DNA of 64,000 nt, from assembly GCA_041671525.1 (NCBI GenBank), contig JBAZBJ010000001.1, positions 9,638 to 73,637 of the forward strand, given 5' to 3'. This document shows, in pieces, positions 4,445 through 64,000 of this stretch. The stretch comes from Parcubacteria group bacterium (GTDB lineage: Bacteria > Patescibacteriota > Minisyncoccia > Moranbacterales > UBA2206). Each line of letters begins with the position of its first letter. Position 1 is the first letter of the stretch. The notes beneath the pieces were generated by a model. The model worked only from the letters and a program-made list of their open reading frames with translations, was not told the origin of the DNA and ran no database searches. The translations under genes and the position numbers were made by a program.

Positions 4445-6238
4445 ATGGCAGAAAAGAAGGACAATTTAAAGGCTGAAAAAAGTGGAGTAAACATCCGTGA
4501 TTTTTGGTTGCACCTTTGGACCTTGATAGTGCCCTTTCATGGGCAGATTTTTGGCGTGTTGGTGCTGATTATTTTTGCGGAAATAGTTAAGCTGAGCGGA
4601 CCGTATTTTTTGAAATTGATTATTGATAATTTGATGGCCTTTGATGCGACTAGAATAAAGGAGATACTAATTTTCATTGCGCTGATGTTTGCGTCTAATG
4701 AGGCGGGATCGCTTTTGAGCTATGTGATTGATGGAAAAATGTTTCAAATTTTAGGTGGTATCAATGAATATATTCCTCATCAAGCTTTGCAAAAGTTATT
4801 ATCACTGCCGCTGGGTTATCATGAAAAAGAAAACACTGGCAATAAGGTAGTAAAAATAACGCGTGGGGTGGACAAGATTGATAGTTTGCTTGGCAATTTG
4901 TCCTGGGAAGTCGTGCCAACAATTTTCCAGATAATTTTTACGGCTGCAGTTCTACTGTTTTTAGACTGGAGATTCTTTTTGATTTTATTGTTTTTTATTC
5001 CGATTTTTGTTTTTCTGACGCTGAAAGTTAACAAGGAGGTTTATCCGTATCGGCGTAAAAGATTTATGAGTCAGGATGAATCGGCCGGGGTGATGGCACA
5101 GGCGATTATTAATATTAACACGGTTAAATCATTCGTGCAGGAGAAAAAGGAGTCCACTAAATTTCAGAAAATTATCAGTCAGGTTAAAGATAATATTTGG
5201 CTAGAATTTAGCCGAATTATCAAATACAATGTTAAGCGAAATTTTGTTATCGATGTGGGTCGGGCCTTCATTTTAGTAGCGGGATTTTTTTTGGTTTGGA
5301 AAAACTCGATGTCGATTGGTAGTTTGGTTTTTGTTTACACGATTTCCGAAAAAGCTTTGCTTTCGCTATTTCGAATTTCGCGAATCTATGATCGAGTTAT
5401 GGAAAGTAGTGAAGCAATTGAGCGAATTTATAGTTTATCATTGGAAGAATCGGAAATTAAAAATGCCAAAAATGGCTTCAAACCAAAAAACATCGATGGT
5501 CAGATTGAATTTAAAAATGTGACCTTTTCCTATTCAGACAGTACACAAAAGGCCTTGAATAAAGTCAACTTTAGTATTAATGCCGGCTGTATGACAGCCT
5601 TGGTGGGTCCTTCGGGTGGCGGTAAAACGACGGTCGCGCGCATGGTGTATCGGCATTATGATCCAACCAAGGGAGATGTGCTGCTCGATGGCAAAAAATT
5701 GCAAGAATATGACCTGTATGCTTTTCGAAAATTCATCGCGATCGTGCCGCAGGAAGTGGAAATTTTTAATACGAGCGTAAAAGACAATATTGCTTACGCC
5801 AAATCGAATGCTAGTTTTCAGGAAGTGCAGGCGGCGGCGCGAATTGCCAACGCGGAGGAGTTTATCACCCAGCTTAAGGGCGGCTATGAAACGCTAGTGG
5901 GCGAGCGCGGCATCAAATTGTCGGGTGGTCAGCGGCAGCGGATCGGGATTGCGCGGGCGATTTTGGCCAATCCGCGAATTTTGATCTTTGATGAAGCGAC
6001 CAGCAGTCTGGATTCGTATAGTGAAAAACTGATCCAGGAAGCTATGGACAAAATCGTGAAGGGGCGAACCGTGATTGTGATTGCGCATCGCCTGAGTACG
6101 ATCAAAAAAGCCGACAAGATTGTGGTGCTGGAGAAGGGCAAAGTGATCGAGGAAGGCAGTCATTTTGAATTGGCACAGGTTAGTGGCGGGCTATATCAGA
6201 AATTGATCAAGTTGCAAGAAGTGGGCGACGTGGATTAA
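4445..6238 (+). CDS. ABC exporter, fused permease/ATPase (MsbA/multidrug type)
   Basis: N-terminal 6-TM domain; Walker A GPSGGGKTT, signature LSGGQRQRIGIARA, Walker B ILIFDEATSSLD. Confidence 0.9.
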   Translation: MAEKKDNLKAEKSGVNIRDFWLHLWTLIVPFHGQIFGVLVLIIFAEIVKLSGPYFLKLIIDNLMAFDATRIKEILIFIALMFASNEAGSLLSYVIDGKMFQILGGINEYIPHQALQKLLSLPLGYHEKENTGNKVVKITRGVDKIDSLLGNLSWEVVPTIFQIIFTAAVLLFLDWRFFLILLFFIPIFVFLTLKVNKEVYPYRRKRFMSQDESAGVMAQAIININTVKSFVQEKKESTKFQKIISQVKDNIWLEFSRIIKYNVKRNFVIDVGRAFILVAGFFLVWKNSMSIGSLVFVYTISEKALLSLFRISRIYDRVMESSEAIERIYSLSLEESEIKNAKNGFKPKNIDGQIEFKNVTFSYSDSTQKALNKVNFSINAGCMTALVGPSGGGKTTVARMVYRHYDPTKGDVLLDGKKLQEYDLYAFRKFIAIVPQEVEIFNTSVKDNIAYAKSNASFQEVQAAARIANAEEFITQLKGGYETLVGERGIKLSGGQRQRIGIARAILANPRILIFDEATSSLDSYSEKLIQEAMDKIVKGRTVIVIAHRLSTIKKADKIVVLEKGKVIEEGSHFELAQVSGGLYQKLIKLQEVGDVD

Positions 6239-13224: not shown

Positions 13225-14589
13225 ATGTTAGATCTGAAAAAAATAAAGAAAGTCTATTTCATCGGCATAAAGGGTTCGGGCGTGGTAGCAATTGTGGAAA
13301 TTTTGCAGAAGCTGGGCATCGCAGTGACCGGCTCAGACACGGCGGAAAAATTTTTTACTGACGAAGTGTTACAAAGATTGGGCGTCAAATACGTCGAAGG
13401 TTTTGCGGTGGAAAATATTCCGACAGACGTGGATCTGGTGGTATATTCGACCGCTTATCGTGAAGATAATAATGTGGAATTTGCGGAAGCAAAAAAAAGA
13501 AAGCTGGAAATGCGTAGTTATCCGGAAATGGTGGGCGAATTGTTCAATAAAAAATATGGTATCGCCGTCTGTGGCACGCATGGTAAGACCACCATTTCTT
13601 CAATGCTAGCCGACATTTTGAAAAATATCGGCGCCGATCCGAGCGCGATCATCGGCAGCCGGGTGACAGCTTGGGGGTCAAACGCGTTGATCGGCCAGGG
13701 TGAATTTTTTGTGTTGGAAGCGGATGAATTTCAAAATAAATTGAAATTATATGAACCCAAAGCGGTGATTTTGACTAGCATGGATTGGGATCATCCCGAC
13801 ACGTACCCGACCTTCGCGGAATATAAACAAGCCTTTGCGGATTTTGTGGGCAAGATTCCCAAAACAGGATTTTTGGTGGTGTGGGGCGACAGTGTGGCGA
13901 CCAACGAGGCGGCCTGCGCTTGTCAGTGTAATATTATCAAGTACGGATTTCAAAATGATAATGATGTGGTAATTACCAAAAAGGGCAATGGAAAGTTTTC
14001 AATTAAATTTTCTGAAAAAGATTTGGGAGAATTCGAAACGCAGTTGGTCGGCGAGCATAATTTATTGAACGCGGCGGCGGTGATTGCTGTCTGCCATCAG
14101 CTAAACCTGGACATGGAAAAAGTGCGGGCAGCCTTGCGCCAATTTAAGGGTACCTCGAGACGTTTTGAATACATCGGGCAACGGAATGGCGCGATTTTGA
14201 TCGATGATTATGGTCACCACCCGGAAGAAATCAAAGCCACGCTCAAAGGCGCGCGCGAGAAATATCCAGACAAAAATTTGATCGCGGTTTTTCATCCGCA
14301 TTCCTATTCACGCACCGAAGCGCTGCTGCAAGACTTCGCGCAGTCTTTTGATGACGCGGATCAAGTAATTGTCTTGGATATCTATGGCAGCGCGCGGGAA
14401 AACACGGGCAAGGTCAGTTCACCGGACCTGGTAAAATTGATTAATAAATATATGCGTGACAAGGCGGAGCATATTCCAACCATCGACGAAGCGGTGGAAT
14501 CTTTGCAAGACAAAATTACCGATCAGGATGTGGTCCTGGCCATCGGCGCGGGCAATGTTTTTGAGGTAGTGAAGAAATTGAAGGAATAA
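13225..14589 (+). CDS. murC: UDP-N-acetylmuramate--L-alanine ligase
   Basis: FIGIKGSGVVA, CGTHGKTT P-loop, DDYGHHPEE motifs of Mur ligases (MurC type). Confidence 0.9.
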   Translation: MLDLKKIKKVYFIGIKGSGVVAIVEILQKLGIAVTGSDTAEKFFTDEVLQRLGVKYVEGFAVENIPTDVDLVVYSTAYREDNNVEFAEAKKRKLEMRSYPEMVGELFNKKYGIAVCGTHGKTTISSMLADILKNIGADPSAIIGSRVTAWGSNALIGQGEFFVLEADEFQNKLKLYEPKAVILTSMDWDHPDTYPTFAEYKQAFADFVGKIPKTGFLVVWGDSVATNEAACACQCNIIKYGFQNDNDVVITKKGNGKFSIKFSEKDLGEFETQLVGEHNLLNAAAVIAVCHQLNLDMEKVRAALRQFKGTSRRFEYIGQRNGAILIDDYGHHPEEIKATLKGAREKYPDKNLIAVFHPHSYSRTEALLQDFAQSFDDADQVIVLDIYGSARENTGKVSSPDLVKLINKYMRDKAEHIPTIDEAVESLQDKITDQDVVLAIGAGNVFEVVKKLKE

Positions 14590-14600
14590 TTTAAAATAAT

Positions 14601-15443
14601 ATGTCAGAAAATTGGCCAAAAACGAATACGCCAGATGCTTCGTCGTTAGAAAAAACGGGGGAATCAGGAGAGCAGAAAAACATTGCTGAGGCGTTGAAAA
14701 AAATTGACGGTGCGGATATTTTTGATAAGAATTACCTTGAAAAAATCAAGATTGTTGTATTTGGGTATGACCAAAGAAAAGTAGGCGTTTTTGAAAATGG
14801 AAGCATGCATGATACCGGAACGGAAGAATTTTCCTTACAAGATTTTATGCAAGGCAAGAGAACTGATTTTGTGGGGATACATCCAAAAAGTGAGTTTATG
14901 GAGCTTGATTTGACGAAGCTCGCTGACAAGCAGTTTTTGCCATTCCTATTCTTTGACGGAAAATTGCAATATGAAGAATTGGTGGTACATGAAATGGCAC
15001 ACACTCTGTTCGATTTGCAATATAAGGCTGCAAATGGTGATTATGAAGATCGAGACGGTCTGACGGATGTATCTGAAAAATATCGAGAATACGTAGTGAA
15101 TGAAATAAAAAGTTTATTTGGTGCAAAATATCCTAAGCTGGAATTGGATAATTTTTCCTTTAGTCGGCAACAAATTGCAGAAATTTTCGCTTTCGCATAT
15201 CAGCGTGAATATTGCAATAGATCCAATGAAAATATGGAGGTGCATGTTGAGTTGCAGGCGAGGGGAAAAGAATTTTTAACAGAGCCTGAAAAGATATTGG
15301 CCGACTTTAATAAAAAAAATGAGAGAAATTGTTCCATGACAGATTTTTATGAGGAGAATCATATTTTGTCCTTGCTGGTTGTGCCATTATTGGAAGAAAA
15401 ATACCCAAATTTTAAGGAAAGAATAAAATTTTTCAATTTATAA
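14601..15443 (+). CDS. hypothetical protein with HExxH motif (possible zinc-metallopeptidase fold)
   Basis: 280-aa ORF; only recognisable feature VVHEMAHTLF. Confidence 0.45.
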   Translation: MSENWPKTNTPDASSLEKTGESGEQKNIAEALKKIDGADIFDKNYLEKIKIVVFGYDQRKVGVFENGSMHDTGTEEFSLQDFMQGKRTDFVGIHPKSEFMELDLTKLADKQFLPFLFFDGKLQYEELVVHEMAHTLFDLQYKAANGDYEDRDGLTDVSEKYREYVVNEIKSLFGAKYPKLELDNFSFSRQQIAEIFAFAYQREYCNRSNENMEVHVELQARGKEFLTEPEKILADFNKKNERNCSMTDFYEENHILSLLVVPLLEEKYPNFKERIKFFNL

Positions 15444-15484
15444 CAATGACAAAACAGAACAAAAATATATACAATCCTGATTTT

Positions 15485-15499
15485 GGACACTGGGTGTTC
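15485..15499. repeat. degenerate REP-like 15-mer unit (ggacactgggtgttc)
   Basis: One-mismatch copy of the GGACAC-NNN-GTGTCC palindrome, 23 nt upstream of the Y1 transposase start. Confidence 0.7.
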
Positions 15500-15521
15500 A
15501 AAAGAGTAGAATAAAATAAAA

Positions 15522-16160
15522 ATGCGAAAAATTGAGTTTAAAAACGGGGAATATTATCATATTTATAATCGGGGTGTTGAAAAGCGCGATATTTTTCTGA
15601 ATGATTTTGATTATCTGAGATTTTTGAAAGCCCTGAATGAATTTAATAGGGTTGATTCAATCGGCAGTATTTTTGAGCAGGGTATCCGAGATAAGAAGAC
15701 AACATTTGGACACCCAGTGTCCAAATTGGTGGAGATTAATGCATATTGCATAAATCCTAATCATTATCATTTAATTCTAAGGCAATTGCAGGATAAAGGA
15801 ATTGAAAAATTTATGCATAAGGTTGGTATGGGATATGCAAAATATTTTAACCATAAATATAAACATTCAGGCGTTGTGTTTCAGGGAGGGTTTCAGGCGA
15901 TCCATATTGATTCCAATGAATATCTTTTATATCTTTCTGTTTATGTAAACAAGAATAATTTTATTCACGGATATGGTAAGAATGATTGGAAATATTCGAG
16001 CGTATTGGATTATTTGGGTAAACGCAAGGACGAGTTATGTAGTAAGGATGTTGTTTTGGGGCAATTTAAAAGTATTGAGGAATATAAGGAATTTATGGAG
16101 GTTAATGCGCTACACTTAAAGGAGAAAAAAGAAATGGAAAAATATTTATTAGAGGAATAA
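15522..16160 (+). CDS. IS200-like Y1 (HUH) transposase, REP-associated tyrosine transposase (RAYT)-like
   Basis: GEYYHIYNRGVEKRDIF N-terminus, HUH motif NHYHLIL, catalytic-Tyr region YLLYLSVYVNKNN; flanked by palindromic REP-like units. Confidence 0.8.
   Translation: MRKIEFKNGEYYHIYNRGVEKRDIFLNDFDYLRFLKALNEFNRVDSIGSIFEQGIRDKKTTFGHPVSKLVEINAYCINPNHYHLILRQLQDKGIEKFMHKVGMGYAKYFNHKYKHSGVVFQGGFQAIHIDSNEYLLYLSVYVNKNNFIHGYGKNDWKYSSVLDYLGKRKDELCSKDVVLGQFKSIEEYKEFMEVNALHLKEKKEMEKYLLEE
15708..15722. repeat. REP-like 15-mer unit inside the transposase CDS (ggacacccagtgtcc)
   Basis: Exact palindromic unit; encodes FGHPVSK. Confidence 0.8.
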
Positions 16161-51849: not shown

Positions 51850-52034
51850 GCTAGAATAAGGCTAACAATTGAATTGGCCTAAACCTTGCTTTTCGGTAAG
51901 GCATGGTCTGAAATCCATGAACATAATAACGGTCTTCTGATCGGTATCATGTTCATGGTCTTATCTCGAAAGGGATATGGGTAGCTCGCAAGGGTTGCCA
52001 CCGACGGGAGACCTTTTTTGTATTCAAAAAAACA

Positions 52035-57515: not shown

Positions 57516-57597
57516 AGCTGATTTCTTTACTTAGAAGTCATTTTGCGATAAAATATTGATATAGGGATACTTCAATTTTATTGCATGAAAAGAAACC

Positions 57598-59829
57598 ATG
57601 AAAGGAGTTGAATTCGGAGAACCCCAATATGCGGCGGCAATGGAATCGAAAGACCGATCCCGTGGCGTTTCCGAAAAGGAGATATTGGATCAGTTTTCCA
57701 AGAAAGAACAAAAAGAAATAAAATATAAACAAAGAGTACTTGCATCGCTTGCCTATTTTATAGGCAAGGATTTTGAAATTCCTGTTGAATTGAATCAACC
57801 CGGAGGCGGATGGCACTGGAATTTTAAAGACAATAAAATCGGAATCGATCCCAAAGATCTCTTGGAAAAACCTTTGGACTATTTGCGTTATCTCATCTGC
57901 CATGAGGGAAGTCACCGCAGAATTTCCAGGACAGATTTCATCCCCGTGGAAACATGGCAGCAGCCGGGTTTTTCCTACATGATGAATGCCATCGAGGATC
58001 CGAGGGTGGATAATTTCGTCGCGGAAAACTATCCGAAATTCAATGAATTTTCACAGCATTTCCATGATGTAGAAATAGAAAATTTGGAAAATAAATATAA
58101 AGAAGAATCTAAAGAAAAGCTCGGTCATCAGCCACGGTTCATTCAGGCCGGCTTTGAATATCTGAGACTCTGGTATAAAGAAACGCAAGGGCAAGCTACG
58201 GAAATAAGTAAAGATTTGCCTCAAGAAGTCCAGCAAGTCGTTCAAAAAACCATAGCTTCAGCTAGGGATTCCTGGTGGCGTTATCCTTTGAAGGGAGAAG
58301 CTGATTCGAACGACGACCTGATAAAAAACTACGCTAAAGTTTCATATGAAATAAATCTCGACGAAGTGTGGCCGGAATTCAAAAAACTGGTTGACGAGGA
58401 TATGAAAGATCAGAACATGCAGGAGTCTCTCAAGGATATGCAATCCAAAGAGCAGCAGGAAGGAAAGGGCCAGGGCGTGCCCCAGCAATTGAAAGATCAG
58501 TTGTCTCCTCAGCAGCAAAAAGAATTGGAGGATGCGATTGATAAAGCAATTGAAGAAGTCAAAAAAGAAAGAGAAAAAAACAAAGCCGAAGCTGGAAAAG
58601 ATGGAGAAAAACCAAAGGATGGATCAGAGGCAGGCGAAGGCGAGCCGAAGGACGGATCTGGAAAGGGCGAAGGTCAACCGCAGGAAGGACAAGGTGGGAA
58701 GCCCATAGATCTCGATTCTCTTTCGGAAGGTTTGAAACAAAAAATAAAAGAATTTATAGATTCACTTCCGCCTGAAAAGAAAAGAGAACTTCAGCAAAGA
58801 GCCGAAAAAGAAATCAAAGGTCTGGAACAGAAAATAAATGAAGAGCTGGAAGGAAAACTTTCTGAAAATCCGCAACAAAAAGTTGAGCGATCTGCAGAGG
58901 GAAAACCTGAAGGCAAAAAAACAGAGTCCGCTCCAGAGCAACCGCGGTCTGATTTTGACAGGGAGCAGGAAGAGCAGAGAAAAAAAGATCTTGATAAATA
59001 CAGGGACATTCTGGAAAAGTCTCTTGAGAAAGATGCAAATATTTACGAGAGATACAGGAGTGAAGTGCTGCCGGTAATCGAAAGTCTGGAAAATGATTTG
59101 CGGGAAATTTTTGTCGCCCGCAGAGCAAGCAGATGGAAAAGTGGATTCAAAACTGGTAAGAGGATAGATATCAAAACTAGAATTCAGGAAAAAGCCAAGG
59201 GTATTTCTCCCGTTGAAAGCAAGGCATGGCAAAAACGTGAGCTTCCTTCTGAAAAGGATTATGCAATTTCAATATTAGTGGATCTTTCAGGATCAATGTC
59301 TGGACAAAAAATACAGGAAACATTTAAGGCTTTGATCGTGTTGTCCGAAGTGCTGAACAAGCTTTCCATAAAAACCGAGATTCTCGGATTCAATGATCGT
59401 CTGTATGAGTATCAGACATTCGGCGAAAGTTTTTCACGCGAAATCAGAGAAAACATGGGAGGAGCCCTGCGAGAAGTTGATAACCATAACGGCGGTCGCG
59501 CAGATTATAATGATGACGGCTGGGCACTTCAGGAAACTTCGCATCGCCTGGCTCGGCAAAAGGCGAACGAGAAATTCATCATGGTGCTTTCCGACGGTGT
59601 GCCGGAAGCGTCTCCGCAGCACAGAGGATCAGAGTTTGATTTGAACAGAGTGGTCAATCACATTACGCAGGAATCCGATCAAAAACTTATCGGTCTAGGA
59701 ATCGGCAGTGGTACTGGTCATGTTGAGAAATATTATCCGAACAGTCTTGCAAATATCAATGTAAAAGAGATGGCTGAAAAGTTGGCTGACACGATCAGAG
59801 AAATGATTGTGAATTATCAAAATTTTTGA
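57598..59829 (+). CDS. metallopeptidase-like (HExxH) N-domain + charged linker + C-terminal vWA domain protein (CobT/DUF2201-like partner of AAA ATPases)
   Basis: LICHEGSHR and NAIEDPRVDN N-domain; long K/E/Q/G-rich middle; vWA MIDAS ILVDLSGSM ... VLSDG. Confidence 0.65.
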   Translation: MKGVEFGEPQYAAAMESKDRSRGVSEKEILDQFSKKEQKEIKYKQRVLASLAYFIGKDFEIPVELNQPGGGWHWNFKDNKIGIDPKDLLEKPLDYLRYLICHEGSHRRISRTDFIPVETWQQPGFSYMMNAIEDPRVDNFVAENYPKFNEFSQHFHDVEIENLENKYKEESKEKLGHQPRFIQAGFEYLRLWYKETQGQATEISKDLPQEVQQVVQKTIASARDSWWRYPLKGEADSNDDLIKNYAKVSYEINLDEVWPEFKKLVDEDMKDQNMQESLKDMQSKEQQEGKGQGVPQQLKDQLSPQQQKELEDAIDKAIEEVKKEREKNKAEAGKDGEKPKDGSEAGEGEPKDGSGKGEGQPQEGQGGKPIDLDSLSEGLKQKIKEFIDSLPPEKKRELQQRAEKEIKGLEQKINEELEGKLSENPQQKVERSAEGKPEGKKTESAPEQPRSDFDREQEEQRKKDLDKYRDILEKSLEKDANIYERYRSEVLPVIESLENDLREIFVARRASRWKSGFKTGKRIDIKTRIQEKAKGISPVESKAWQKRELPSEKDYAISILVDLSGSMSGQKIQETFKALIVLSEVLNKLSIKTEILGFNDRLYEYQTFGESFSREIRENMGGALREVDNHNGGRADYNDDGWALQETSHRLARQKANEKFIMVLSDGVPEASPQHRGSEFDLNRVVNHITQESDQKLIGLGIGSGTGHVEKYYPNSLANINVKEMAEKLADTIREMIVNYQNF

Positions 59830-59841
59830 TATAATAAAAAC

Positions 59842-60939
59842 ATGAAAAATTCTTACGAAGCAATTTTTGGTTTAGGAGGAAAAAAGAAAGATGAGGAAAA
59901 AAAATCATCTGAAAGTAAGCCTGTTTCTGGAGAAAATCCAGTTGAACAAGAACAATCCTCCTCTGAACTGGAAAATGCAACAAGCATAAAAAAAGAAATT
60001 TTAGAAATAACTCAGGGAAAAAACCTTGAGGATTTGGCGTTGGAAGATTTGCAAAAAGTTCTGGCGAAATACAAAGAAATGGAAATTGCTCTCGGGCTTC
60101 CTGAGGCAGAACCGAAGGGTGACGTTCGCGAGCAGATGCAACGCGCGAAAGAAATTATGGGAGAAGATTTTTTCGCTCATGAAGAAATAGAAAAAGCATT
60201 CGGCTTTAAAGTTAGTCCTGAGCTAATTCCCGAAGTTCCTTTTTCACGTGAAGATCTGGAACGCGCAAGAGAATTGAATCAGTTCCTTATTCTGAGAGTA
60301 GACAAAACCGGTGACGGAAAGCCCTTGACGTTGGCGAAAATGAATGAGCTTCTCGGAGGAAAAACAAAAGACGGCAGCAAAGCCTTGTATGCCGATGATG
60401 AAAGCGGCAGTGGAAAGATAGAAGACGATTCATGGTACAAAGATGAAGATTTCGCGTTGAAGGATGTGCCGAAACTTTCATGGGCACTTGTAAGCAAGGA
60501 AGTCATTTCATCTTCTCCTGACAAAAACTATCTGGATCAGACATCTGAAATAGTGGACTATCTGAAGAATGAAGTTTTTAAGGGAAAAGAAATTCCTGTT
60601 GAATTCCAGTCTGCGATTTCTGAATTTGAAAAATCAAAAGACGGAATAGAAAAGCTCATGAATGAAGATTGGGAAAAAGCAGCTGAAAAACTCGAAGGAC
60701 TTGCAATCACCAAACTTACCAGGCAGACGCCAGCTGAAGCTATCTATGATATTTTTGTTTATTTTCAAAATAAAGGAGAAAGATTATTGGAAAATATGTA
60801 TACCTGGACTTCACGCCGGAGCTCTGACGGCAAGCTTGTGCTTGTTGGCGGCTTCGATTCCGACGGTGCGGATGTCAGTAGCCACAGGCCTGACGATTCC
60901 CACGACAGTCTCGGCGTGTCTTTCTCCCGCAGTCTTTGA
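59842..60939 (+). CDS. DGR target protein 1 (stand-alone variable C-terminal domain)
   Basis: C-terminal roughly 265 aa clearly paralogous by eye to the C-terminus of 61414..63513; last 126 nt = variable repeat VR1. Confidence 0.75.
   Translation: MKNSYEAIFGLGGKKKDEEKKSSESKPVSGENPVEQEQSSSELENATSIKKEILEITQGKNLEDLALEDLQKVLAKYKEMEIALGLPEAEPKGDVREQMQRAKEIMGEDFFAHEEIEKAFGFKVSPELIPEVPFSREDLERARELNQFLILRVDKTGDGKPLTLAKMNELLGGKTKDGSKALYADDESGSGKIEDDSWYKDEDFALKDVPKLSWALVSKEVISSSPDKNYLDQTSEIVDYLKNEVFKGKEIPVEFQSAISEFEKSKDGIEKLMNEDWEKAAEKLEGLAITKLTRQTPAEAIYDIFVYFQNKGERLLENMYTWTSRRSSDGKLVLVGGFDSDGADVSSHRPDDSHDSLGVSFSRSL
60813..60938 (+). repeat. DGR variable repeat VR1
   Basis: 126 nt aligned without gaps to TR 63811-63936; 10 mismatches, all at TR adenines. 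Confidence 0.9.
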
Positions 60940-60975
60940 AGATTTGAGATTTGAATTTTGAATATTTGAAAAGAA

Positions 60976-60992
60976 TTTTTGCGAAGCAAAAA
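60976..60992 (+). promoter_or_regulatory. hairpin 37 nt downstream of VR1 (tttttgc-gaa-gcaaaaa)
   Basis: Identical hairpin at the identical offset after VR2; may double as terminator. Confidence 0.6.
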
Positions 60993-61009
60993 ATTAAAAG
61001 AAATATATT

Positions 61010-61411
61010 ATGCAAGAAGAAATACGAAAATTTTTGGAAATGACGAACGGTTCCACGGAGCTGTGTCTTATGATAGCGCAAGATGACCAGGAGCTCGCAA
61101 CCGTTGAAAAGGAAGTCAGCGATGCCGGATTCCAAAAAACCAAAAATATCAGAGAAATATTCAATGCGATAAAAAACGGGACCAAAATATATTTCACCTT
61201 GGGCGAAGCCCTTGGAAACAATATATACAACATTTTAGCTCAATATCCCACGGGACAGGTTACTGCAAATGACGGTCAGAAAAATCTGGTTGCGAATCCT
61301 GATTATAAAAATGGATCAGTTTTGATTTTGATAACAAAAGAAAATTTAGAAAAAATTGAGAAAAGCGAAAAAAGTCTGCTGAGAATTGCAGGCTTGACTT
61401 GGCAAAAATAA
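61010..61411 (+). CDS. hypothetical 133-aa protein between the two DGR targets
   Basis: ORF abutting the ATPase gene (stop 61411, next ATG 61414); no motif recognised. Confidence 0.45.
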   Translation: MQEEIRKFLEMTNGSTELCLMIAQDDQELATVEKEVSDAGFQKTKNIREIFNAIKNGTKIYFTLGEALGNNIYNILAQYPTGQVTANDGQKNLVANPDYKNGSVLILITKENLEKIEKSEKSLLRIAGLTWQK

Positions 61412-61413
61412 TC

Positions 61414-63513
61414 ATGACACCAGAAACACAAAAATTTCAGGAAAAAGTTGTCGACAGGGCAACAACCCCAATAGCAGAAACGGAACATTCCGTTGCTTAT
61501 TTGGGCGTCGAACTTCCAAAAGGAAAGGGTGGCGATTTTTGTCCGAAACGGGAAAACTATCAGGGTTATATCAATGAAGAGTTTTCGCTGGAACTGCAGA
61601 GAAAAATAGCTACATCCTGGAAACTTGACCAGCCTATTTTGATTGAGGGAGGAACCAGCATCGGAAAAACCACTACTGTGAGAAAAATGTGCGCAGAACT
61701 CGGCTATGAAGTTTATTACAAGAACCTTAACGGAACAACGGATGTCGAAGATCTGATGGGAAGGTATGTGCCGAATCCTGACAGGAAAACTGCCAATGAT
61801 CCCGAATACAAATGGGCTGACGGACCTGTTACTCAGGGACTCCGACAGGACAGTGAAAAAATAAAAGTGATAATTTTGGATGAATATAACTCTGCCAATC
61901 CGAACATTGTCATTCGTTTGCATGAAGTGCTGGACGAATTGGAAAAGAACGGAGAGGTTGTGCTTGCCGAGGATGCATCGGAAAGAGTCAAAGTTGGCAA
62001 AACAAGAACCAAAGTTATCGCACTTACGAATCCTCCAGGAAAGGGATATCTCGACCGACAACCTCTTGATCCTGCTCAGCTTCGTCGTTGGAATTATCAA
62101 AAGGAAGTGTCTGAATTGCCGAAGGACACCTTTTCAGGATCGGTTGATATCATGTTTCATCTGAAGCCTGAAACAAAAGAAATGGCGGAGGAAAAGTTTT
62201 TGCTTTCAAGCGATGTTGAAATTCCAATCGGTGAGCTTCGGGAAGTTCCTGGCATGAAAGAATTGGTTGAAAAATACAAGGAATTCCATCATGCTGCAAA
62301 AGAACTTTTGAAGAACAGGAAGATTGGTCAGGATCAGCCGCAGGCTTTCATGTACGATGACCGCATGGAACCGCAGAGAGTGCTGAAATTCATTCAGAAT
62401 TTTTATCGCGGCGATATCAATGAAGTGTGGAAAGAAGCTCTCAGATATTTCTATGTGAACAAACTCGAAGATGATACCGACAAGCAGAAATTGCTTGAGC
62501 TTATCAATGCAATCGAATATGCCCAGCCAGCAGAATCAAGGCGCAAGGGACTGGAACGTGAAGGTGCGGGCGCCGAAGCAATGGCAAAAGCTGAGACTCC
62601 TGAAGAAAAGGAAAGACTTCGAACGCTTGCGGAAATCGAACGTGTCAGAAAAAGAATAGAGGAAAGCGGAAAAGTGCCGGACGGATTTTTTGAGGAAAAA
62701 AGAGAAGGACTAAGCGGAGCCTTGGCTGAACAGATTAAAAATGCCAAAGAAATTCTGGGCAAAAAAGATGTTTTGGGGATAGAAGAAATCGAAAATACAT
62801 TCGGAATAAAAGTGCGGGCGGAAGACGTGCCAAACATTCCTTTCTCCAAAGAAGAATTGGAAAAAGCCAAGGAACTTGGACAATTCCTGATTCTTCGCGT
62901 AGGGGAGGGATCAGACGGCAAGAAATTGACCATGGAAAACATGCATGGAATTCTGTCGGATGAATTCAAAAAAGAAGGTCTTGGTAAGATTCTGCATGAA
63001 ATTTCCTGGTATAAAGATGAGGATTTCTTCAAAAAAGAAACGCCTAAACTTTCCTGGTCTTTGGTAAGCAAGGAAGTCGTTCCGGATTCGACAAACAAAA
63101 ATTATCTGCAGCAAACCGAACGCATGATTGATTATGTTCAAGATTCGGTTTTCAAGGGAAAGACCATGCCGAAAGAATACCAAGATGCTCTTCGTGAATT
63201 TGCCGAGAAGAAATCCACAATACAAAAAATGATGAGCGATGACTGGCAGAAGGCTGCCGAGATGCTGGCGGAACTTTCCATAAACAAACTAACAAGGCAA
63301 TCACCTTCTGAATTCATTTATGATATGATCGCTTATTTGAAGAGCAACAAAGAAAGATTAATGGAAAATATGTATACCTGGACCATGCGCCGGTACTCTG
63401 GCGGCGAGCTTGTGCTTGTTGGCGGCTTCGATTCCGACGGTGCGGGTGTCAGGGGCCGCAGGCCTGGCCATTCCCGCGTCTATCTCGGCGTGTCTTTCTC
63501 CCGCAGTCTTTGA
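61414..63513 (+). CDS. AAA_5/MoxR-CobS-type ATPase fused to DGR-variable C-terminal domain (DGR target 2)
   Basis: Walker A ILIEGGTSIGKTTTV, Walker B VIILDEYNSANPNI, LTNPPGKGY...LDPAQLRRW; C-terminal domain paralogous to 59842..60939; last 126 nt = VR2. Confidence 0.8.
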   Translation: MTPETQKFQEKVVDRATTPIAETEHSVAYLGVELPKGKGGDFCPKRENYQGYINEEFSLELQRKIATSWKLDQPILIEGGTSIGKTTTVRKMCAELGYEVYYKNLNGTTDVEDLMGRYVPNPDRKTANDPEYKWADGPVTQGLRQDSEKIKVIILDEYNSANPNIVIRLHEVLDELEKNGEVVLAEDASERVKVGKTRTKVIALTNPPGKGYLDRQPLDPAQLRRWNYQKEVSELPKDTFSGSVDIMFHLKPETKEMAEEKFLLSSDVEIPIGELREVPGMKELVEKYKEFHHAAKELLKNRKIGQDQPQAFMYDDRMEPQRVLKFIQNFYRGDINEVWKEALRYFYVNKLEDDTDKQKLLELINAIEYAQPAESRRKGLEREGAGAEAMAKAETPEEKERLRTLAEIERVRKRIEESGKVPDGFFEEKREGLSGALAEQIKNAKEILGKKDVLGIEEIENTFGIKVRAEDVPNIPFSKEELEKAKELGQFLILRVGEGSDGKKLTMENMHGILSDEFKKEGLGKILHEISWYKDEDFFKKETPKLSWSLVSKEVVPDSTNKNYLQQTERMIDYVQDSVFKGKTMPKEYQDALREFAEKKSTIQKMMSDDWQKAAEMLAELSINKLTRQSPSEFIYDMIAYLKSNKERLMENMYTWTMRRYSGGELVLVGGFDSDGAGVRGRRPGHSRVYLGVSFSRSL
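63387..63512 (+). repeat. DGR variable repeat VR2
   Basis: 126 nt aligned without gaps to TR; 20 mismatches, 19 at TR adenines, 1 at a T (TR 63877). Confidence 0.9.
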
Positions 63514-63549
63514 AAATTTGAGATTTGAATTTTGAATATTTGAAAAGAA

Positions 63550-63566
63550 TTTTTGCGAAGCAAAAA
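63550..63566 (+). promoter_or_regulatory. hairpin 37 nt downstream of VR2 (tttttgc-gaa-gcaaaaa)
   Basis: Same sequence and offset as after VR1. Confidence 0.6.
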
Positions 63567-63810
63567 TTAGTTCATGGAGATGATAGATTTTGGATGGCTG
63601 TGAATCTTTTGTATCTTTATTTCATACAAAGTATCCATGGCTAATGTAGGTATGTTTACGGATATGCCTCGCCAAGTTCTAAAGACTGCTTATATTCCTC
63701 CAGTACAGATAGCCGAAAGGTGAGTCTGTCGCGTTTTCATACAAATGAGACCCGCTTTCCTCGCGGAAGCGCGAATCGTTGCTGCCAAAGAAGGAGGAAT
63801 ATAAAAAGGG

Positions 63811-63936
63811 ACGCCGGAACTCTGACGGCAAGCTTGTGCTTGTTGGCAACTTCGATTCCGACGGTGCGAATGTCAATAGCAACAGGCCTGACAATTCCAA
63901 CGACAATCTCGGCGTGTCTTTCTCCCGAAGTCTTTG
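63811..63936 (+). mobile_element. DGR template repeat (TR), non-coding copy of the target 3' end
   Basis: No start codon (in-frame TGA at 63746-63748, no ATG after it); AAC/AAT-rich (would read NVNSNRPDNSNDN); 28 of 126 positions are A by my count; donor of all VR differences. Confidence 0.9.
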
Positions 63937-63966
63937 CCCCGTCTTAACTGGCGGGGTTTTCCTTTT
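63937..63966 (+). other. hairpin plus T-run directly after TR (ccccgtc-ttaact-ggcgggg tttt)
   Basis: 7-bp stem with one G-U pair; could be a terminator or part of the DGR RNA. Confidence 0.4.
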
Positions 63967-64000
63967 CCGGCTTGAGACTCTTGATCCAGCCGCCAAGCAT

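Follow-up and report, generated by a model that had tools for sequence, protein, structure and literature searches.

Diversity-generating retroelements (DGRs) of the candidate phyla radiation (CPR, or Patescibacteria) are said to have been the subject of Paul et al. 2017. In this study, we examined 64,000 nucleotides from a Parcubacteria group bacterium (GenBank assembly GCA_041671525.1, contig JBAZBJ010000001.1, positions 9,638 to 73,637 of the forward strand; hereafter the window) and describe what is very probably the target and template part of a chromosomal CPR DGR, ordered as targets, template repeat (TR), avd and reverse transcriptase (RT), together with the RNA mechanism by which it may work. 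The TR-(avd)-RT order is known as architecture B3 and makes up 90% of the DGRs in the CPR set of Wu et al. 2018 (PMC5758913). Like the locus described here, CPR DGRs (Wu et al. 2018; clade 2 of Roux et al. 2021, PMC8144416) have an inverted avd, multiple targets and C-terminally encoded variable repeats (VRs); their host group, and targets without membrane or known domains, also agree with our locus. Some CPR targets carry Midasin/P-loop NTPase AAA motifs (VR class UVR4), with the VR fold left undecided (Wu et al. 2018), and CPR targets lack membrane domains (Roux et al. 2021), none of which were seen in either target here. The locus is a further member of this known type, its B3 architecture having already been catalogued.

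Two other systems bear on its interpretation. With the Bordetella BPP-1 DGR (mtd-avd-TR-brt) it has adenine mutagenesis, Avd and RT, and the logic of initiation of mutagenic homing (IMH and IMH*) in common. In the Bordetella ribonucleoprotein (RNP) (Handa et al., bioRxiv 10.1101/2023.10.23.563531), TR117-129 pairs with spacer positions Sp47-56, Sp A56 being the priming nucleotide; two nucleotides on, Sp59-70 pairs with avd369-379 upstream of TR (the 'cPRT Stop'), a short stem-loop and unpaired adenosines follow, and an Avd-binding stem-loop lies just 3′ of TR. The second comprises the 'ternary' conflict systems of MoxR and vWA proteins in which FGS domains are diversified by DGRs (Kaur, Burroughs, Iyer, Aravind 2020, PMC7159879); these are the closest functional analogue of the gene cassette found here.

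The evidence for a DGR begins with three gap-free 126-nt repeats, VR1, VR2 and TR, which had been proposed in an earlier note on this DNA. On recount, their coordinates (Table 1), the numbers of mismatches and the 28 TR adenines were identical to those reported, and the peptides quoted for the repeats were correct on re-translation. With a TR composition of A28 C35 G31 T32, all 10 mismatches of VR1 fall on TR adenines (7 A>G, 3 A>C; hypergeometric p = 6.8e-8), as do 19 of the 20 in VR2 (12 A>G, 4 A>C, 3 A>T; p = 8e-15 for at least 19), the remaining one being T63877>G. The TR is non-coding, as had been claimed: an in-frame TGA (63746-63748) is followed by no start codon in the TR frame, and the stop that ends the VRs is lost (TTTGA>TTTGC; TGA in the VRs, TGC in TR). 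Both VR reading frames, on the other hand, are open. The 27 in-frame TR adenines lie at codon position 1 (12), position 2 (14) and position 3 (1), eight codons are AAY, and about 10^14 protein variants are encodable.

A reading with no retroelement at all would have three paralogous repeats diverging by mutation or gene conversion, with TR as a pseudogene fragment. The target genes are indeed paralogues, 55% identical over 275 aa, which explains why the flanks of VR1 and VR2 remain alike beyond the repeat. Nevertheless, we hold this reading to be extremely improbable. Its expected even spread of mismatches over the four bases was checked by recount, and 29 of the 30 differences were found at TR adenines instead, a base spectrum that we consider to refute it already. 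Further, TR-VR similarity ends sharply at both edges of the 126 nt, the TR flanks being unrelated to those of the VRs; Avd and RT are neighbours in the orthologous locus described below; and the A-biased pattern recurs in 18 loci, where 650 of 746 mismatches in 35 TR/VR pairs fall on TR adenines.

That orthologous locus was found in a homologue search with the protein of target gene 1, which identified a 94% identical protein (P0001) encoded on a 69-kb contig, L001. This contig is syntenic with window 57597-64000 at 91-95% identity and extends past the window end, which lies 64 nt after TR and short of any RT. The earlier note had expected an RT just downstream of TR and proposed looking for a DGR-type RT and Avd past the window end; on L001 both were found, avd following TR on the minus strand and the RT following avd on the plus strand, 412 nt after TR. 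The L001 Avd (121 aa) reaches 88.2 bits with NF033474 'DGR protein Avd', for which the cutoff is 80, and matches PF22296 (bAvd), while the RT (14572-15612; 346-362 aa) matches RVT_1 at 3e-23 and contains LGNLTSQ and RYADDF (YADD), in line with the motifs GxPLGNxTSQ and RYxDDF that are invariant among 12 related RTs. The statement that the window contains neither RT nor Avd was correct for the RT; for Avd it was not, since the C-terminal 18 residues are encoded at the very end of the window. There the minus-strand frame reads ...MLGGWIKSLKPEKENPAS before its stop, the C-terminus of Avd, and by tblastn of window 63950-64000 all 17 aligned residues equal those of the L001 Avd, the last residue before the stop being S in the window and G in L001. 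By comparison with L001, the source contig would be expected to carry the RT as well. The same order, with avd on the reverse strand and RT on the TR strand, was seen in about 20 genome loci and in most of 80 metagenome loci collected via their RT, most of which lack the variable domain of our targets (Cdom, see below). Adenine-specific mismatches, Avd and RT in L001, and the transfer from TR to VR between genomes considered next all uphold the reading of an adenine-mutagenising DGR.

Other features of the compared loci deserve mention. L003 has a second (avd)-RT pair (4510-5865), situated some 2 kb upstream of the vWA gene, and another Avd after its TR, which suggests two DGRs within one 14-kb locus. 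The RT matches of L004 (10124-11199), L012 (12116-13232) and L029 (11574-12556) come in two tblastn pieces, suggestive of frameshifted or interrupted genes or of assembly errors; the TR/VR differences of these loci are still A-biased. The similarity between L001 and the window has its left edge at window 57597, at the start of the vWA gene, with no detectable likeness upstream, where the window encodes an APH-family kinase and two small membrane proteins and L001 encodes UvrB and a DsbA-like gene. Either genome rearrangement or transfer of the whole cassette of about 8 kb would account for this break. Exact DNA scans with the TR scaffold gave no match in viral, genome and metagenome collections, and an exact look-up of three window proteins returned no record.

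Comparison of the two near-identical loci speaks to activity. The TRs are identical at 125 of 126 positions, the single change being C>T at position 49 in L001, and this C49T is also present in both L001 VRs. The VR1 orthologues differ at 17 sites (16 TR adenines and position 49) and the VR2 orthologues at 18 (16 TR adenines, position 49 and the T63877 site), so that 32 of 35 differences are at TR-A sites; relative to their own TR, the L001 VRs differ at adenine sites only (19 and 18). The occurrence of C49T in TR and both VRs, combined with the A-site differences, directly shows by comparison that TR-to-VR transfer with adenine mutagenesis took place after the lineages split, and thus that the element was recently active. 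That the DGR of this genome is decaying or inactive, its VR differences being fossils of earlier activity, could draw on the RT not being visible within the window, on the split or frameshifted RTs of the three relatives named above and on the one non-A change in VR2. We consider it improbable, however, as TR is intact and nearly the same as its sister, the VRs differ at 17-18 sites, nearly all of them A, against a background identity of 91-95%, and the VR frames, all RNA helices and the IMH are intact.

The ends of the VRs carry further signals. A pattern of five TTTGA units occurs exactly twice in the 64-kb window, once behind each VR, where 0.02 would be expected. Arrays of TTTGA or CTTG with a period of about 8 nt follow the VRs printed for 18 genome loci as well as most VRs of 12 metagenome DGR loci with unrelated targets, and are absent 3′ of TR in the compared loci. 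We propose this array, on the strength of its distribution, as a candidate target-recognition element. Behind it lies a hairpin, at whose site relatives usually have a GC-rich one. Within the repeat, A63928 (TR position 118) is replaced by C in nearly all 35 VRs of the 18 genome loci, and position 118 is usually C also in the VRs of DGRs with other targets. As A63928 is the sole third-codon-position A in TR and the A/C change is synonymous (CGA/CGC), protein-level selection is no explanation for it. The 3′-most variable A is at TR position 96, and A118 lies outside the 3′ limit of transfer. The A in TR versus C in VR may be read, from sequence comparison, as an IMH/IMH* marker.

In every locus, at least about 230 nt of non-coding spacer precede TR, and we found this spacer to contain a structured RNA domain. 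An alignment of 16 loci revealed conserved blocks and two helices rich in compensatory changes; RNAalifold returned 21 pairs, 15 of them with compensatory changes, and the helices P3 and P4 (Table 1) fold in 16/16 genomes from differing sequences. In a full-length alignment (A3), 89% of cells were paired as compared to 40-47% with slid partners, 20 pairs showed double changes, and none of 500 shuffles reached the observed values. Folded alone, the window RNA recovers P1, the long-range duplex discussed below, P2, P3 and the 3′ hairpin in its RNAfold minimum free energy structure (z = -3.4). A search of Rfam 15 with the TR leader gave no match at E <= 1. A covariance model of the domain (R1), run on the 80 metagenome loci, gave a single match in the window and 49 others spread over about 40 RT-anchored loci, in each case on the RT strand and upstream of avd. 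As to the limits of the RNA, a -10-like TAnnnT box, in several cases with an upstream TG, lies 1-13 nt before the motif GGCUAAUG in 31/35 loci (6-8 nt in about half). At the other end, most loci have a stable hairpin of differing sequence directly after TR, usually followed by a T-run. In the window this hairpin overlaps avd, its minus strand providing the last codons, with the stop in the loop, and the L001 copy keeps the stem via two changes (G-U to G-C, C-G to U-G). In L007 (7310-7787) and L012 (11100-11579), P1, the motif and the 5′ strand of P2 lie about 416-418 nt upstream of TR and the part comprising the junction, P4 and the 3′ strand of P2 still adjoins it; this implies that about 300 nt are inserted within the P3 region, where the insertion ends in TAA and may be a small open reading frame.

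Within this domain, the strand AAAGACU is complementary to the TR tail AGUCUUU (63929-35), with which it would form a 7-bp duplex. The two sides covary among loci, examples being CACACU/AGUGUG, AACACU/AGUGUU, AGAUU/AAUCU and UUAGACU/AGUCUAA; among metagenome loci, GAAACU/AGUUUC, AGCACU/AGUGCU and UUACACU/AGUGUAA were found, as well as GGAGAUACU/AGUCUCUCC with one mismatch. When tails were permuted among loci, the observed pairing was reached in 0 of 20000 cases. Two other forms of this pairing were considered and rejected. A pseudoknot is not supported, as folding shows a nested long-range helix enclosing P2 and TR. Nor does the AAAGACUGC motif pair primarily with VR DNA: in L014, L016, L023 and L024 it follows TR-specific tail bases that are absent from the VR, and since the motif tracks TR-only bases, RNA-RNA pairing is primary. 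Pairing of the motif to the VR at the G:C position is speculation.

The nucleotide following the primer strand is always mismatched to the TR base and usually complementary to the VR base, the pair with the VR being G:C in most loci, C:G in L043 and, in L079 and L080, a G:T wobble. This nucleotide may set the distinction between self and target, that is, between IMH* and IMH. It is not always G, as seen in L043/L045 (5364 and 5581) and L051 (445 and about 690). In L043 a C follows the primer, the TR base is U and the VR base G, so both the mismatch to TR and the complementarity to VR are kept; in L051 an A follows and the TR base is C, the mismatch to TR again being kept.

From these elements a mechanism can be outlined. 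TR would be transcribed as a separate RNA of about 330 nt (about 63639-63960), in which the AAAGACU:tail duplex would present A63928 as the first template base, facing the invariant G63688. P2, beginning two nucleotides beyond the primer strand, would loop out a 118-nt template between two helices, and the hairpin right after TR would serve as Avd-binding stem-loop and terminator. Adenine-mutagenised cDNA would then replace the VR as far as the IMH, which would be marked by the C in VR versus A63928 in TR and by the TTTGA array and hairpin that follow. Analogy and covariation together make cis-priming at about U63687, with A63928 as first template base, moderately likely.

This outline compares closely with the Bordetella RNP. 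In both, a primer strand (primer-like here) pairs with the 3′ end of TR, and after two nucleotides comes a further duplex, of about 12 bp, with its partner strand just upstream of TR; the subsequent stem-loop and A-rich single strand of Bordetella correspond to P3 and the A/U-rich junction here, and both have a hairpin 3′ of TR. In contrast, the primer and Stop strands, which are located in the downstream spacer in Bordetella, lie 5′ of TR here, both duplexes showing compensatory changes. Because the inverted avd, unlike the arrangement in BPP-1, leaves no room for a downstream spacer, a 5′ placement fits the architecture. Other differences concern the first template base, which is TR G117 in Bordetella and here would be an A mismatched to G; the target signal, a GC-rich IMH with cruciform there and an AT-rich TTTGA array here; and the target itself, a phage tail fibre in BPP-1 and a cytoplasmic protein here. 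We slightly favour the view that the RNA of the CPR-type clade is a circular permutation of that of Bordetella, with the priming/Stop domain placed 5′, its own promoter and a terminal hairpin, and including the self/target role of the base after the primer and recognition of TTTGA.

Alternatively, the DGR could be genuine and the upstream RNA domain a leader, stability or regulatory element, with priming drawing on sequence downstream of TR, antisense to avd, in the manner of Bordetella, or with synthesis being target-primed. Handa et al., surveying 40 nt upstream and 100 nt downstream of TR, reported putative Avd-binding stem-loops and 'Stop' duplexes between upstream and downstream sequence in 207/278 Avd-containing DGRs, those of CPR included, and a hairpin is indeed found just 3′ of TR here. 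We nonetheless regard this alternative as rather unlikely: an exact complement of the tail hexamer sits at a fixed place upstream in 21/24 loci and within 200 nt downstream in only 2/24, the motif covaries with TR-specific tail bases not common to the VR, a T-rich tract follows the 3′ hairpin, and the motif precedes P2 by 2 nt, the same spacing as between Sp56 and Sp59 in Bordetella.

The diversified proteins are of interest in their own right. The VRs encode the last ~40 residues of Cdom, the C-terminal part of about 265-275 aa that the two targets have in common. In the second target, the AAA_5 region (residues 75-225) belongs to the MoxR/dynein/midasin branch and has intact Walker A (GGTSIGKT) and Walker B (IILDE) motifs. 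Target category g1 of Wu et al. is recognised by a Midasin/P-loop NTPase motif, and the VR here might belong to their class UVR4. No signal peptide, transmembrane or hydrophobic segment was seen in either target protein, and Cdom, a conserved and cytoplasmic-looking domain, is found both on its own and joined to a MoxR-like AAA+ ATPase. Homologues of target 1 (n=152) all come from Patescibacteria or metagenomes. In a scan with one genome per species, 36 loci encoding Cdom were found, nearly all labelled as metagenome-assembled genomes of Patescibacteria or as unclassified bacteria, with five Gammaproteobacteria and one Methanosarcinales.

Searches by tblastn with the cassette proteins identified a recurrent module of vWA gene, 133-aa gene, AAA_5::Cdom gene, one to three free Cdom genes, TR, (avd) and RT, present in at least 11 genomes. 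Within it, the vWA protein is encoded together with the AAA_5 target and the DGR at no fewer than 11 loci of Patescibacteria, and the 133-aa gene is conserved beside the AAA_5 gene in L001, L003-L006, L011, L012, L014, L026 and L027. Neither Cdom nor the 133-aa protein has a family in Pfam, NCBIfam or PADLOC, weak matches to Kelch, Csx1 and mad8 having been dismissed as noise. Lone Cdom genes that have neither RT nor Avd within 10 kb (L008, L019-L022, L028, L031) still end in CCCGCAGT, with variant ends of CCCGC only in L019 and L021 and of CCCGTAGT in L031, followed by TTTGA, CTTG or related repeats; judged by this VR-end signature, these genes are probably targeted remotely by a DGR located elsewhere. 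In L010, L025, L032 and L035, the Cdom copies are without VR-end signals.

The systems of Kaur et al. likewise combine a MoxR AAA+ ATPase and a vWA protein with a third, small gene and with a C-terminal module made hypervariable by a DGR. They differ in that their FGS/C-type-lectin domain is usually fused to vWA, whereas the variable domain here is found on the ATPase and alone, and in their hosts, cyanobacteria or gammaproteobacteria as opposed to CPR. Their third component is VMAP; for the 133-aa gene here no family was detected. No FGS signature was detected in the variable domain and no PADLOC models match. Diversification at this locus would likely be anticipatory, acting on a module that binds or senses inside the cell and is coupled to a MoxR-vWA machine.

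With respect to fold, the earlier note had likened the invariant scaffold to FGE and C-type lectin domains and suggested comparing a predicted structure with them. An AlphaFold (AF2) model of target 1, built with 61 homologues, was confident, with a predicted local distance difference test score (pLDDT) of 88.6 overall and >95 over residues 100-365. Foldseek searches of this model against PDB and BFVD returned nothing at E <= 1e-3; the best sub-threshold PDB matches were mostly FGE, CarF and EgtB domains, the top ones being FGE or EgtB at E 0.37-1 over 60-79 columns, and those to FGE and CarF together spanning a short 56-79 columns. A PDB profile search with the variable domain found nothing even at E <= 10. 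The proposed likeness therefore finds no backing in Pfam, NCBIfam or PDB profiles, and the model offers at most a hint of a lectin-like C-terminal sub-structure.

Several points weigh against the overall interpretation given here. The RT lies outside the window and the evidence for it comes from L001, whose left flank is non-syntenic. Pfam, NCBIfam, PDB-profile and Foldseek searches give the variable domain no significant match. The primer:tail duplex of some sublineages has a conserved internal mismatch, and the window itself has no clean -10 box, although a sigma-70-type promoter is clear in most relatives. Finally, it is by analogy that the ends of the RNA, its priming nucleotide and the part played by each helix are assigned.

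Table 1. Features of the DGR locus and its cassette, in window coordinates
Feature	Position	Strand	Remarks
vWA-domain protein, 743 aa, first gene of conserved cassette	57598..59829	+	Pfam CobT_C, VWA, VWA_CoxE
Target gene 1, 365 aa: disordered K/E-rich N-terminus and Cdom	59842..60939	+	open reading frame; no Pfam family
VR1	60813..60938	+	3′ end of target gene 1; mismatches to TR only at TR adenines
Post-VR1 array, five TTTGA units, spacing 8, 7, 7, 8 nt	60935..60969	+	stop codon inside first unit
Hairpin after VR1 (AATTTTTGC-GAA-GCAAAAA(A)TT)	60974..60995	+	
133-aa protein, conserved cassette member	61010..61411	+	no family match
Target gene 2, 699 aa: MoxR/dynein-type AAA+ ATPase fused to Cdom	61414..63513	+	Pfam AAA_5 at 1e-13
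VR2	63387..63512	+	3′ end of target gene 2; 19/20 mismatches at TR adenines
Post-VR2 array, five TTTGA units, spacing 8, 7, 7, 8 nt	63509..63543	+	pattern scan
Hairpin after VR2 (AATTTTTGC-GAA-GCAAAAATT)	63548..63568	+	
Structured 5′ domain of TR RNA	63639..63810	+	covariation, folding, covariance model
Motif GGCUAAUG	63639-46	+	
P1	63648-56/63661-69	+	
Primer-like strand AAAGACU	63681-87	+	then invariant G63688, C63689
P2, 12-bp helix	63690-63701/63793-63804	+	closes just upstream of TR
P3	63705-09/63725-29	+	
Junction, A/U-rich	63730-44	+	
P4	63744-48/63776-80	+	
Linker, 6 nt between P2 and TR	63805-10	+	
TR	63811..63936	+	3′ tail AGUCUUUG (63929-36), pairs with 63681-87; A63928 discriminates TR from VR
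Hairpin CCCCGUC-UUAACU-GGCGGGG (63937-63956) and U-rich tract, terminator-like	63937..63966	+	directly 3′ of TR
avd 3′ end: last 18 codons (63947-64000) and stop TAA (63944-63946)	63944..64000	-	gene runs past window end

Elsewhere in the window, and unrelated to the DGR, a LOOT RNA (RF03000) was found at 51876-51999 on the plus strand as a full-length Rfam match (80.2 bits versus a gathering threshold of 46.4, E = 1.7e-13). A tRNA search of the window found none.

In conclusion, two near-identical genomes provide unusually clean evidence of recent activity for a DGR of an already catalogued type. We found no description of the ~170-nt RNA domain, the upstream primer-like strand, the TTTGA array or the A/C position that tells TR from VR in the searched literature, which took in neither Paul et al. 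2017 nor the supplements of Wu et al. In the same literature we found no reconstituted member of the CPR-type clade, the Bordetella RNP structure alone being available. The wider value of this study lies in the finding that the abundant CPR-type DGRs have a covariation-supported RNA domain in common, one that predicts the start and stop points of cDNA synthesis and the means by which TR is distinguished from VR. Together with RT and Avd, the ~330-nt RNA makes up a minimal system that can be tested directly, and a compact candidate for engineered targeted mutagenesis. If the circularly permuted RNA holds true, the ~8-nt-periodic TTTGA/CTTG array would be a new kind of DGR target-recognition element. 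For the organisms themselves, the targets point to diversified intracellular recognition in genome-reduced symbionts, and a MoxR-like ATPase and a free variable domain beside a vWA protein parallel the MoxR-vWA conflict systems proposed for multicellular bacteria.

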